Notes under the pieces: model-generated
What the model was told of the DNA's origin: nothing
The model's database searches: none
What the model saw: only the letters and a program-made list of their open reading frames with translations
Shown: in pieces, positions 53,508 to 56,668 of the stretch
How positions within the stretch are numbered: position 1 is the first letter of the stretch
Layout of the letters: each line of letters starts with the position of its first letter
Origin: an uncultured Clostridia bacterium
GTDB lineage: Bacteria > Bacillota > Clostridia > TANB77 > CAG-508
NCBI GenBank assembly: GCA_948502395.1
Contig: CAOPES010000001.1
Coordinates: forward strand, 64,957 to 128,956
DNA length: 64,000 nt
Direction: 5' to 3'
Program-made: the position numbers and the translations under genes

Positions 53508-53671
53508 AATATAAAACAAGTTAAGAGTGCTATATAAAATACACATATTAACTTGTTTTTTTATGTTTTAGAAATTATAATTAGAAATTTTATAGATGTG
53601 GTAATACTTGTTGACGTAATGTGAATATGAAATATAAAATATTTACATGAACAAAAGAAAGGGGTAAAAAA

Positions 53672-54910
53672 ATGAAACAAGATAGAAGAAGCGGAATTAC
53701 ATTGATTGCACTAGTAATAACAATAATTGTGCTGTTGATTTTGGCAGGAGTGGCGATTGCAACTTTAACAGGGGATAATGGAATATTAACAAAGGCAGTA
53801 CAAGCAAAAGAGAAAACAGAAAAAGCAGCAGAAGACGAAGCATTAAAATTAGATGCAATGGCAAGCATGGATGAAAATGGTAAAATAAAATACAATACAG
53901 CCACAACAGTAGAAGAAGCAATAAAGCAAAACTTGCCATATAAAAACAATACTAAAATAACAGATAGATATGGAAATAAAATAACAATTCCAGCAGGATT
54001 CAAAGTGATAAAAGATGATCCAACAGAACCTACACCAACAGTAAAAGACGGAATTATAGTACAAGATGCAACATATGAAGGAACAATAGGAAGTGAATTT
54101 GTATGGATACCAGTAGGAAATATTAAAAAATCAGAAACAGAGACTATAACAATAAATTTAAGTAGATATACATTTGACAGTGAGGGAAATGAAACATCTC
54201 ATTTCTCAGAAGAAATAGAAAATAGTTATGCCGAAGACACAAAAACAAGTCATGAAAGTGAATATAAAAATGAAATAGCAAGTAATATTGAAGAGTTTAC
54301 ATTAAAAGCGAGTTCAGAAAAAAGTGGTGGATATTATATAGGAAGATATGAAGCAAGAGTTGATAACTATGATGCAGATGCAATTATCACAGAGAAGAAT
54401 AATTCAGAGATTAATTGGACAGGATATCAAGCAGAAGAAGGAAAAGAACTGAAATTAGTAACAAAGTCAAATAGTCAAGTATGGAATTACATAACACAAA
54501 GGAAAGCATCAGAAGTATCAAAGAAAATGTACGAAGGAAAAGAGTTTTCAAGTGATTTAATGAATAGTTATGCTTGGGATACGGCAATATTGTTTTTGCA
54601 AACATTCGATGATAGAGCATTAGAGAATAAGAGTATATATTCACTACAAAAGACCTTAAATATGGACATCATTGCAAATGAAGGTACAAATAATTTGTTG
54701 GAAAACAATAAAGACAAAATATGTAATGTATGGGATATAGCAAGTAATTGTTTTGAATGGACAACAGAAACTCATAAATATACTAGTGGTAACTGTGTAG
54801 CTAGGGGTGGTAGTTATAGTGATAAAGATTATTGTGCTAGTTATCGTAGAGTAAATGGTGCTGGGAGCGCTGTTGGTAGTTTTGGTTTTCGTCCAATCTT
54901 ATATTTATAA
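53672..54910 (+). CDS. prepilin-like leader + FGE-sulfatase-like domain protein, paralog 4
   Basis: Leader MKQDRRSGITLIALVITIIVLLILAGVAIATLTGDNGILTKAVQAKE. Motifs VWDIASNCFEWTTE, ARGGSYSDKDYC and a C-terminus GFRPILYL. Confidence 0.65.
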   Translation: MKQDRRSGITLIALVITIIVLLILAGVAIATLTGDNGILTKAVQAKEKTEKAAEDEALKLDAMASMDENGKIKYNTATTVEEAIKQNLPYKNNTKITDRYGNKITIPAGFKVIKDDPTEPTPTVKDGIIVQDATYEGTIGSEFVWIPVGNIKKSETETITINLSRYTFDSEGNETSHFSEEIENSYAEDTKTSHESEYKNEIASNIEEFTLKASSEKSGGYYIGRYEARVDNYDADAIITEKNNSEINWTGYQAEEGKELKLVTKSNSQVWNYITQRKASEVSKKMYEGKEFSSDLMNSYAWDTAILFLQTFDDRALENKSIYSLQKTLNMDIIANEGTNNLLENNKDKICNVWDIASNCFEWTTETHKYTSGNCVARGGSYSDKDYCASYRRVNGAGSAVGSFGFRPILYL

Positions 54911-55051
54911 TAATCTTGATTTTATAAATATAGATTGAATTATAAAGTATATATAAAAGTTAAAAAAATAAAATCGACATATACTTGTTGACGTAATGTG
55001 GAATGGAATGTAAAATTTAGTTGAACAAATGTGAAAGGAAGAGTTTTGATT

Positions 55052-56668
55052 ATGAAACAAATTAACGAAAAGGGAATTACATTGATTGCACTAGTAATAA
55101 CAATAATTGTGTTATTAATTTTGGCAGGAGTGACGATTGCAACTTTAACAGGGGATAATGGAATACTAGGAAAAGCAGTACAAGCAAAAGAAAAAACAAA
55201 CACAGCAGGAGACCTAGAATACTTGCAAACAGAAGCGTTAGGAATAATAGCAGAATATTATTTAAGTGATAAAAGTGTGTCAGAAGATGAATACATACTA
55301 ACAGAATTAGGAAAGAAAAGCGGAATAACAGCAAATATAGCAAAAGGAACAGTAACATACAAGAACAAAGAATACACACTAAGTGAAATAACAGGTGGAA
55401 CAGAAGAAAAAGAACAGATAGAAAAGAATAGACTAGAAGAAATAACACTAGCAAACGCAGAAAAAGGAAGTGCGGAAGAAACATTATTAAAAGAACAAAG
55501 TGTTAAGGCAATAATTGTAGAAAAGGAAGACAAAACAAATAGAGCAGTAATACCAACAGGATTTTACTATGTAGCAGGAACGCCATCAACAGGACTAGTA
55601 ATTTCAGACAAAATGGGAGACGATGATAGCAACAGCAAAAAAGGGAATCAATTTGTGTGGGTACCATGCTCAGGAACCAATGGAATAACGTACGAAAAAA
55701 CAGATGACAATGGAACAGGAAATCATGGGCTAGCTTCATACTGGAAAGAAAGTTATAGTGATAAACAATGGAGCTATACAACAACAACAGCAGGAGAAAC
55801 AATAACAGATTGGTCAGATAATGGCGGAAATTACGCAAGTGTAACAAAATATGGTGGATTTTATATAGGAAGATATGAAGCAGGAGTGCCAAGAGATGCA
55901 GATTTTTACGCAGATAGTGAAGGAGCAACATATTATAAAGAAGAAAAGAAGAACTCTGAGGAAGTATTAAGTATGAGGCCAATAGTACAAAAAGGAACAC
56001 AAAGCTGGAATTATATATCACAAGAAAAAGCTAAAAAAGTTTCTGAAAATATGTATAAAGCAAGTACATCAGTAACAAGTGGATTAGTGGATAGTTATGC
56101 ATGGGATACAACTGTAAAGTGGATGGCAAGTGATAGCGAATATAGTGGAATAGGACTAGACAGCACAAATTTTGGGAATTATGCAAACAATAGTCAAATA
56201 ACAGCAAATACATTGTATGCATTACATAGATTTGCAGGAAGAAATGCAACAGGGGTGGCAAATAATAAAAATGATTATTGGACATATGCAACAAAATATA
56301 AAAAAGGAAATATAACGTCAGGGTATGTTTCATTGTCAGCATCAATAAGAGACCAATATGAATTTGTATTAAATTCATATGATGACACAAATTACAACTA
56401 TGATATAAGAAAAGAATTTGCGACAGGTGCAACAAATGAAACAAAAGTAAAGAATATATATGACATTTGTGGAAATATGTGGGAATGGACTACTGAAACA
56501 GGAAATCAAACAACACCATCTGGAAGTTCTGAAATGGAATATGCTGTACTTCGTGGAGCCGGACTTGGCGATGAAGGGGAAAAAACAATATGGTTTCGCA
56601 ATGGTGGTGCTTTGGCAACTAACAGTATTGCAGATGTTGGATTTCGACCAGTATTATATATAAAATAA
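55052..56668 (+). CDS. prepilin-like leader + FGE-sulfatase-like domain protein, paralog 5 (longer, more divergent)
   Basis: Leader MKQINEKGITLIALVITIIVLLILAGVTIATLTGDNGILGKAVQAKE. Motifs FVWVPC, GFYIGRYEAGV, VDSYAWDTTVKWM, ICGNMWEWTTE, LRGAG and a C-terminus GFRPVLYI. Confidence 0.6.
   Translation: MKQINEKGITLIALVITIIVLLILAGVTIATLTGDNGILGKAVQAKEKTNTAGDLEYLQTEALGIIAEYYLSDKSVSEDEYILTELGKKSGITANIAKGTVTYKNKEYTLSEITGGTEEKEQIEKNRLEEITLANAEKGSAEETLLKEQSVKAIIVEKEDKTNRAVIPTGFYYVAGTPSTGLVISDKMGDDDSNSKKGNQFVWVPCSGTNGITYEKTDDNGTGNHGLASYWKESYSDKQWSYTTTTAGETITDWSDNGGNYASVTKYGGFYIGRYEAGVPRDADFYADSEGATYYKEEKKNSEEVLSMRPIVQKGTQSWNYISQEKAKKVSENMYKASTSVTSGLVDSYAWDTTVKWMASDSEYSGIGLDSTNFGNYANNSQITANTLYALHRFAGRNATGVANNKNDYWTYATKYKKGNITSGYVSLSASIRDQYEFVLNSYDDTNYNYDIRKEFATGATNETKVKNIYDICGNMWEWTTETGNQTTPSGSSEMEYAVLRGAGLGDEGEKTIWFRNGGALATNSIADVGFRPVLYIK

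Follow-up and report, generated by a model that had tools for sequence, protein, structure and literature searches.

Five lectin-like paralogs of an uncultured Clostridia bacterium as probable orphaned targets of a lost diversity-generating retroelement

A 64,000-nt stretch of the genome of an uncultured Clostridia bacterium (GTDB CAG-508; contig CAOPES010000001.1, positions 64,957 to 128,956; hereafter the window) carries five related genes, paralogs P1 to P5, in two blocks. Each encodes a pilin-like leader at one end and, at the other, a domain resembling the formylglycine-generating enzyme (FGE). What are these proteins, and what accounts for their number and their divergence? The explanation that we favour with good confidence is that P1–P5, together with at least one copy elsewhere on the contig, are membrane-anchored variable proteins of the diversity-generating retroelement (DGR) type, which are now orphaned, fixed targets with drifting variable regions (VRs).

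The second block consists of P4 (53672..54910, + strand), encoding 412 aa with a basic N-terminus, a hydrophobic pilin-like helix, a helical stalk and an FGE/C-type-lectin-like domain, and of P5 (55052..56668, + strand; 538 aa from the ATG or 545 aa from a GTG at 55031), which has the same architecture with a longer stalk/small domain and a beta insertion of ~65 aa within the lectin-like domain. The first block, also on the + strand and given here with the promoter boxes, comprises P1 (42848..44012; coding sequence 42909-44012, 367 aa), P2 (44134..45403; coding sequence 44195-45403, 402 aa) and P3 (45558..46836; coding sequence 45619-46836, 405 aa). At the protein level P4 is 66% and 65% identical to P2 and P3, which agrees with their closeness as stated in the initial annotation, and 36% identical to each of P1 and P5. 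All motifs that the annotation had listed for P5 are present in its open reading frame (ORF): the leader, GGFYIGRYEAG, DSYAWDTT, NMWEWTTE and the C-terminal GFRPVLYIK. P5 is indeed longer than P4, by 126 aa and not the suggested ~140 aa, and the excess is located in the stalk/small domain and in the beta-rich insertion of the C-terminal domain. Common to all five are G(Y/F)Y(I/V)xRYE, NxxDxxxNxxEWT and a C-terminal (F/S)Rxx LY. In a profile-profile comparison with hhalign the two subfamilies, those of P4 and of P5, match over their whole length (probability 100%, E 7e-83), showing P5 to be related in fold to the other copies; with homology over the full length and a leader and TGTTGACGTAAY box in common with P1–P3, P4 and P5 belong to one five-copy paralog family, as had been proposed.

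Evidence on the origin of the family came from its relatives. Homologs that are almost the same elsewhere have very different sequences immediately before FRPLLYL. Among 93 near-identical homologs, 13 of the 21 columns with an entropy >1.5 bits fall at columns 428-461 of 471, within the last 45 residues, and the residues found in the hypervariable columns (N, Y, F, S, G, D, H, C, V, I, L, R and T) are the set reachable from AAY codons via adenine changes. A hypervariable C-terminus with this residue spectrum is the signature of a DGR. All fetched loci were scanned for imperfect repeats with adenine-specific mismatches. At locus L036 a family member (7700-8962) is followed by a MutS_I gene, bAvd, an RVT_1 reverse transcriptase (RT; with IGNYTSQ and YMDD motifs) and a template repeat (TR) of 146 nt. 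The MutS_I, bAvd and RVT_1 proteins all score above the Pfam cut-offs, and the VR differs from the TR by 22 mismatches, 86% of them at TR adenines and mostly in AAC/AAT codons. At locus L090 three tandem P5-like genes (~77-80% identical to P5) precede bAvd, an RT and a 119-nt TR; in the two proximal VRs, 12 of 13 (T3) and 14 of 16 (T2) mismatches are at TR adenines. The RT of L090 (17080-18110) has a single-nucleotide insertion just before GNLTSQ that leaves ORFs of 201 and 121 aa, which could be a recent inactivation or a sequencing error.

Cassettes with MutS_I, bAvd and RVT_1 stand beside family members in L036, L085 and L098-L102, and intact bAvd-RT-...-MutS_I cassettes were found in metagenome-assembled genomes (MAGs) from rabbits. 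Decayed cassettes, with an internal deletion in the RT or with remnants of the MutS-like (MSL) gene, follow family members in L085, L025 and L007. With this gene set, the cassettes belong to the MSL+avd class of Wu et al. 2018 (PMC5758913). The neighbourhoods of the closer P4-type relatives (P0121, P0003, P0133 and P0132) hold no DGR cassette. Homology and gene order place P1–P5 in the variable-protein (target) family of a DGR.

Is such an element still present? Within the 64 kb of the window, sensitive blastn searches with the last 260 nt plus flank of each paralog revealed no TR-like repeat beyond the other paralogs, and phmmer searches with the L036 proteins together with ORF inspection revealed no homolog of RT, Avd or MSL. 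Conspecific assemblies, which are 99.2-99.9% identical to the window over 12-20 kb and, like all comparison genomes, are short-read MAGs, were informative here. P5 of the conspecific L003 ends in a GC-rich VR that has 16 mismatches to the L090-type TR, 15 of them at TR adenines. In the same assembly codon 8 of avd runs straight into the gene located behind the TR in L090, i.e., the segment corresponding to L090 16741-18390 (avd, RT and TR) is exactly missing. Together, the adenine-patterned VR and the clean avd-RT-TR deletion point to a species that once had an L090-type DGR and lost it, at least in L003. P1–P4 show zero differences among four strains. The 90% identity clusters of P4 and P3 consist of one sequence each, on 10-20 contigs (the exact P4 protein, P0001, on 14-20), and those of P1 and P2 vary only outside the VR. 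It is because of the missing cassette in the window, the conspecific deletion and the invariant VRs of P1–P4 that we read the copies as orphaned targets, a status that would extend to the whole genome.

The codons of the VRs provide a second line of evidence. DGR codon design favours NNC/NNT and avoids A at the third position. Over the last 42 codons (the VR has ~45), verified VRs had fractions of 0.83-0.86 for NNY, 0.45-0.50 for NNC and 0.02-0.10 for A at the third position (A3), vs 0.32-0.35, 0.05-0.09 and 0.53-0.58, respectively, in gene bodies. The design is clearly seen in P2 (NNY 0.83, NNC 0.36, A3 0.07) and P3 (0.79, 0.43 and 0.10). P4 (0.79, 0.07 and 0.17) and P1 (0.60, 0.12 and 0.36) follow, and P5 (0.52, 0.10 and 0.40) is close to background; thus, the signature fades in the order P2≈P3 > P4 > P1 > P5. 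The VR-equivalent of P4 (TETHKYTSGNCVARGGSYSDKDYCASYRRVNGAGSAVGSFGFRPILYL; 54764..54907, + strand) was aligned by eye to the reading frame of the L036 TR, and its NNY fraction differs from that of its own gene body with p 4e-8. As changes from NNC to NNT are always synonymous and are favoured in a genome of 30% GC, this stretch is read as an old variable region that is probably no longer templated and has drifted from C to T. The VR-equivalent of P5 (AVLRGAGLGDEGEKTIWFRNGGALATNSIADVGFRPVLYIK; 56543..56665, + strand) is AT-rich and is the portion of the gene that is replaced in other strains. Over 119 positions its end differs from the related TR at 70, of which 50 are not adenines, and the equivalent of the initiation of mutagenic homing (IMH) site is degenerate (GGATTTCGACCAGTATT vs GGCTTCCGCCCTGTGCT). 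P2 and P3 differ from each other by many third-codon C/T exchanges and thus were not re-templated from one TR after their divergence. The window would therefore hold a natural decay series after the loss of a DGR, from P2 and P3 over P4 and P1 to P5, in which codon drift might serve as a clock.

The C-terminal domain fits a function in binding. The AlphaFold2 (AF2) model of P5, built on 57 sequences, reached a pLDDT of 87.7, and its best matches among PDB folds were the DGR variable proteins TaqVP (E 7e-4, probability 0.99-1.0), Mtd (E 6e-3) and TvpA (probability 0.94), followed by the FGE-type C-type-lectin folds of CarF, EgtB, CalU17, ToxD, PvdO and PorK. The FGE domain PF03781 was matched by 54 of the 57 members of the P5 subfamily, and the L003 allele of P5 reached 30.3 bits against it (cut-off 23.3). 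The window copies themselves have no significant match in Pfam, NCBIfam or PHROGs (noise only in the latter two), apart from a subthreshold N_methyl hit on the leader, and a profile of the five copies found weak matches to SUMF2 (E 0.002) and FGE in the PDB. The label "FGE-like" of the initial annotation thus suits the family well and the window copies weakly. There is no invariant Cys or His in the FGE/EgtB catalytic region of either subfamily alignment (for Cys, the last 60 residues); in these 60 residues P5 lacks Cys and P4 has a single, non-conserved one. By the human FGE sequence, the active site of FGE, with the catalytic Cys pair that follows the RGGS motif, lies in the segment that is hypervariable here. 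The lack of invariant Cys or His and the hypervariability of that segment argue for a binding scaffold with a C-type-lectin/FGE fold in the window family, not for an enzyme. An identity as FGE enzymes was rejected, since the conserved catalytic residues are absent.

These findings can be joined into one scheme. Each gene has a sigma-A-type promoter of its own and encodes a short basic N-terminus, the very conserved hydrophobic pilin-like helix, a helical stalk and an FGE-subtype C-type-lectin-fold domain. The helix would act as an N-in/C-out anchor in the monoderm membrane, and the lectin-like head would bind an extracellular ligand with its VR surface, formed by the last ~45 residues. Such a surface display would match most cellular DGR targets according to Roux et al. 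(PMC8144416). In the relatives, the cassette of MutS-like protein, bAvd, RT and TR would rewrite the VR by adenine-specific mutagenic retrohoming. Here, after the loss of the cassette, the copies would persist as a fixed repertoire of binding specificities, with VRs that drift from the NNC signature toward the composition of the genome.

How are these copies expressed, and what does the leader tell? Within the 64 kb there are exactly five copies of the 12-mer TGTTGACGTAAY, with none expected by chance; they lie at 42848, 44134, 45558, 53609 and 54986, each ~60 nt upstream of one paralog start. Each paralog therefore has its own promoter module, as the initial annotation had noticed. The 12-mer supplies the -35 element of a TTGACG-N17/18-TAAAAT promoter, and the sites of P4 and P5 are the two best promoter-like sites in 53400-56900. 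The P4 module (53609..53640, + strand) consists of the TGTTGACGTAAT box, the -35 element TTGACG (53611-53616), an 18-nt spacer and the -10 element TAAAAT (53635-53640), and the P5 module (54986..55016, + strand) of TGTTGACGTAAT, the -35 element (54988-54993), a 17-nt spacer and TAAAAT (55011-55016). The module is kept in all five paralogs and also in the sixth paralog, P6, of locus L086. P5 is followed by an intrinsic terminator (56671..56726, + strand), a long hairpin and then T8 (-18.3 kcal/mol, z -5.3). A near-identical leader, GITLIALVITIIVLLILAGV-IATLTGDNGIL, opens all five proteins; in P4 it is encoded by the block GITLIALVITIIVLLILAGVAIATLTGDNGILTK (53693..53791, + strand).

This leader allows for the tentative alternative, compatible with membership in a DGR target family, that the proteins are modular type IV pilins whose leader is cleaved by a prepilin peptidase and which probably sit at the tip of a type IV pilus or Com pseudopilus. 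It has Gly at -1, then I-T-L-I and ~20 hydrophobic residues, and reaches 14.4-18.3 bits with PF07963 (N_methyl) in P1–P4 (16.5 in P4), and there are weak matches to MshA and geopilin. A GspG-type pilin domain was among the rare VR-bearing proteins in a survey (PMC11661182), and comFC lies between the two blocks. However, the PF07963 scores stay under the cut-off of 21.2, P5 had no match at all in the Pfam search of the window proteins, and position +5 is Ala instead of Glu in 5/5 copies. The latter would still fit the alternative, since minor pseudopilins at the tip, such as GspK, typically lack Glu5. Pilus assembly genes (prepilin peptidase, ATPase/platform) were not found in the window or in the inspected family neighbourhoods, ComFC is not a component of the pilus, and the AF2 models of P4 and P5 break the N-terminal helix at TGDNG. 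A plain membrane anchor would be enough, because the verified L036 target and the 708-aa forms of the family use N-terminal transmembrane (TM) helices unrelated to the window leader. Of the pilin-leader claim in the initial annotation, Gly at -1 and the hydrophobic helix remain; the residue at +5, the score below the cut-off and the lack of linked pilus genes do not agree with it. From its leader sequence, a role of the window proteins as tip pilins is possible.

The 5′ ends of the genes have a history of their own. Between P1 and P2/P3, the promoter block is 95-96% and the leader-coding block 91-94% identical at the DNA level, vs proteins that are only ~41% identical. The leader-coding DNA of P4 is nearer to that of its neighbour P5 (91%) than to that of its closest relatives P2 and P3 (85-87%). 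Because leader likeness follows block neighbours and not closest relatives, gene conversion within each block seems to have homogenised the 5′ module of promoter and leader. The proposal that promoter-plus-gene units were duplicated and then diverged thus holds for the duplication, and the 5′ module does behave as a unit; it fails for the divergence of these modules, which were homogenised instead. Variation between strains was seen at the other end. P5 of L103 is about identical to the window P5 up to nt 1456, except for a patch at 860-926, and then continues with a VR-type end and a different downstream flank; in L003 and L004, P5 switches near nt 609. The claim of a recombinationally active region is accordingly probably right for the 3′ variable end of P5, unless the switches there stem from the assembly, and not for the genes between the blocks.

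Based on the homogenised 5′ modules and on the swap of the P5 VR end at a breakpoint near nt 1457, there is some chance, though we would not rate it high, that after the loss of the retroelement recombination among paralogs, with promoter plus leader, body and VR as three modules, keeps the family diverse, or, compatibly, that the leader marks subunits of a type IV filament tip. The latter, if true, would make the family DGR-diversifiable pilus adhesins in Firmicutes. Genes of YhgA/Rpn-type recombination-promoting nucleases (Transposase_31) often stand beside family members and might help such module exchange; accordingly, these genes may be linked to recombination among paralogs. One YhgA/Rpn-like Transposase_31 gene is located in the window at 7703-8758, and Transposase_31 / PDDEXK_2 plus HTH_Rpn_C genes adjoin family members in L086 (11952-12944), L090 (11915-12937) and L095 (8941-9843 and 20620-21206).

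Could the paralogs instead still be active targets of a DGR elsewhere in the genome that acts in trans, as is the case for the seven remote paralogs of TvpA in Treponema denticola? We consider this improbable, although several observations weigh in its favour and against orphaned targets. Only 64 kb of the genome are visible, so a trans-acting DGR could exist, and DGR targets more than 100 kb away are documented (PMC5758913). By codon signature the VRs of P2 and P3 are still like fresh ones, with an almost intact NNC pattern, and P2 has a 3′-flank element that is conserved next to the cassettes of relatives. At the P5 locus, the VR-type ends of the alleles are not the same in L003, L004 and L103, which could reflect recent DGR activity in the species. 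The 3′ junctions of P5 may be true paralog recombinants or short-read assembly switches or chimeras. The NNT-rich VR of P4 could stem from an AAT-rich template instead of from drift, as the P2–P4 subfamily is without a known closely related TR. On the side of the fold, the matches of the P5 model have low TM-scores (0.3-0.4), which is attributable to the several domains of the protein; the P4 model is weak (pLDDT 66.6) and returned the same fold families without significance, and none of the window copies P1–P5, P4 and P5 included, matched PF03781 at E < 0.1.

In contrast, the third-codon C/T differences between P2 and P3 could not be produced by a common template, the P4 cluster is a single sequence on 14-20 contigs, the end of the window P5 departs from the TR at its many non-adenine sites and in its IMH-equivalent, and the cassette is deleted in a conspecific assembly. 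Moreover, among the 120 RT homologs listed of 3,555 to the reconstructed L090 RT (best 79% identity), none was traced to this species; the inspected homolog of 77% identity is from rabbit MAGs. We therefore retain orphaned targets as the explanation.

Two details concern the regions just discussed. The conspecific assemblies L003 and L004, otherwise near-identical, differ within 12 nt of the VR of P5 (L003 11381-13012, L004 11381-13000; CGC CAC GGC AAC vs CTT CAC GGC GAC); a TR adenine is affected by one of the changes and not by the two others, with residual DGR activity, ordinary mutation and assembly noise as candidate causes. The 3′-flank element of ~70 nt (…CTCTGTGAAAAC.AAAA.TA.AAC…AGTAGTTTT.ATATAG.GTAATTGAATA.AAG) lies 3′ of the stop codon of P2 (window 45404-45475) and of distant family members (L001 9661-9730, L091 11429-11500, L025 11324-11395 and L085 11363-11430) and is not present after P1, P3, P4 or P5. 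Within it lies the inverted repeat AAAACTA/TAGTTTT. In L025 and L085 the element stands ahead of the MSL gene of a decayed DGR cassette; it could be a target-recognition hairpin or a cassette junction.

The genes between the two blocks (47573..53507, + strand) lie outside the family and are, as annotated, recD2 (split), comFC, a KAP-like gene and spoVT, with a small TM ORF on the - strand. The initial annotation took them for an insert that had split the array. However, the order recD2-comFC-KAP-spoVT-family member recurs in other species (L001, L075 and L081), in L022 and L050 a family member again lies a few kb downstream of rpoA-rplQ, and L035 has three tandem family members upstream of spoVT. 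This conserved synteny shows both sites to be old and the intervening genes to be conserved chromosome rather than an insert. Copy number and subfamily at both sites vary between species, in line with the copy-number variation that had been anticipated. Single members also occur among housekeeping genes at unrelated sites: behind tmk, behind spoIID and an M23 peptidase gene, ahead of a SCIFF/radical-SAM pair, or behind a BspA-type LRR gene. Another reading, in which a pilin-leader/FGE-like gene was simply duplicated in tandem, its copies diverged by point mutation and the array was later split by insertion of recD2 to spoVT, would account for the duplicated promoter-plus-gene units and the differing copy numbers. 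It is nevertheless very unlikely, as three other species have family members in synteny with the intervening genes and two have kept the site on the rplQ side, no invariant Cys/His exists in the FGE active-site region of either subfamily, and divergence is concentrated in a DGR-type VR with homogenised 5′ modules.

The inter-block segment (recD2 and the genes at 50373-52859) looks as if it were degenerating. recD2 (47573-49788) consists of three overlapping ORFs (47573-49300, 49191-49601 and 49561-49788). Its first break, after 575 aa and followed by a short ORF, is identical in the conspecific L002-L005 and L103, and hence looks like a real pseudogene or a programmed shift and not like a read error. 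The KAP-like ORF (50940-52859) has no Pfam match, and the P-loop N-terminus is on a separate ORF (50768-50989; ...INGEWGSRENP); the orthologue in L001, 86% identical, is an intact PF07693 KAP NTPase of 649 aa. ComFC has 153 aa in the window vs 240 aa in L001. Directly upstream of P1, an ORF of 116 aa (42456-42806) is a truncated glycosyltransferase fragment that matches only the first 60 of 168 Glycos_transf_2 positions. After P3, an ORF of 159 aa (46930-47409) without a Pfam, NCBIfam or significant PHROG match is kept in all conspecific assemblies and is unlike DGR accessory genes.

Farther away in the window, an insertion (32759-36477) that is unusual for a ribosomal spc operon separates secY (31258-32577) from adk (36916-37656); it holds an Hpt gene (32759-33121), a hybrid histidine kinase with receiver (33129-35660) and an ORF of 270 aa and unknown function (35665-36477). 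An agr-like quorum-sensing region (4196-9556) contains agrB (4196-4822) and, on the - strand, genes of a GHKL sensor kinase (5049-6398) and of two paralogous regulators (6382-7095 and 8840-9556); the regulators are nearly the same at their N-termini and flank the Transposase_31 gene. A BspA-type LRR_5 surface protein is encoded at 19570-21030, and two LRR_5 proteins (L086 7922-9685 and 13463-14926) flank the sixth paralog, P0132 (P6), elsewhere on the same contig; in L002/L087, P0132 is likewise on the contig of the window's locus.

How widespread is the family? About 8,000 homologs each were scored for P4 and for P5; the ~8,000 for P4 are all without a name or Pfam domain. At E ≤ 1e-30, 422 family representatives were found in a library clustered at 50% identity. 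In species-representative genomes the hosts are MAGs of uncultured gut Clostridia/Bacillota (human, rabbit, chicken, mouse and rumen), and several copies in one genome are common. A phage origin was rejected, as 2.9 million viral contigs yielded only 4 loci and the genes around family members are housekeeping genes. Contigs of ~40 kb with P0065-like proteins, suspected to be phages or plasmids, turned out to be chromosomal and syntenic with the window. One representative, P0401, has 6,477 aa with 15 stretches matching P4, i.e., a giant protein of many copies of the lectin-like domain.

These results identify a large unannotated surface-protein family, which likely binds ligands of the host, of phages or of other microbes and whose members seen here nearly all stem from uncultured Clostridia in the gut of humans, rabbits, chickens, mice and ruminants. 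The usual way to DGR targets is via the RT and the template repeat, and for this reason orphaned ones go unnoticed and are annotated as hypothetical. They can nevertheless be recognised from sequence by a C-terminal NNC/NNT patch in a genome of 30% GC, by hypervariability within the family and by homology to cassette-linked relatives. FGE-type C-type-lectin variable proteins, multiple or remote targets and MSL+avd cassettes were already known; newly seen are the unannotated family and the orphaned, decaying state in the window.

Several known systems show parallels as well as differences. FGE/SUMF1, EgtB and OvoA (PF03781 enzymes) have in common with the family the fold, the NxYDMxGNxWEWT motif and a C-terminal GFR. 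In contrast to these enzymes, the catalytic Cys pair/His triad is not conserved in the family, and no sulfatase or ergothioneine genes are nearby. Type IV pilins and pseudopilins (PF07963) resemble the leader in Gly at -1 and in the long hydrophobic helix of a class III signal; unlike in pilins, Glu +5 is replaced by Ala, scores stay below the cut-off, and there is neither a recognisable pilin globular domain nor linked assembly genes. The type V pilus adhesins of Bacteroides (bioRxiv 10.1101/2024.11.15.621889) exemplify DGRs of gut bacteria that diversify adhesive surface or pilus-associated proteins. Phylum, pilus type and protein family differ there, and incorporation of the window family into a pilus is a possibility. 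Cassettes with MSL and Avd (PMC5758913), including the Legionella DGR, have the same gene set that stands beside the relatives and of which the window holds none. TaqVP of Thermus aquaticus (5VF4) and Mtd of Bordetella phage (1YU0-1YU4), the best structural matches of the P5 model, both have a C-terminal VR in a C-type-lectin fold. Their sequence identity to P5 is ~10-12%, with TM-scores of 0.3-0.4 and other N-terminal domains; Mtd forms the tip of a phage tail fibre, whereas the window family is cellular. The parallel to TvpA of Treponema denticola (2Y3C) extends to the genomic arrangement. TvpA is a lipoprotein with a cognate TR and RT in its host, whereas the window family uses a pilin-like or plain TM helix, and neither TR nor RT was seen in the window or left by the deletion in the conspecific assembly. 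The sequence similarity to P5 is marginal, with E 0.056 in a profile search vs a fold match probability of 0.94. TvpA is surface-exposed, a topology that the window family probably adopts as well. Like P5, it has an FGE-subtype C-type-lectin fold with the VR at the extreme C-terminus, and like the window family, it comprises several related targets scattered on the chromosome away from the RT (PMC5758913).

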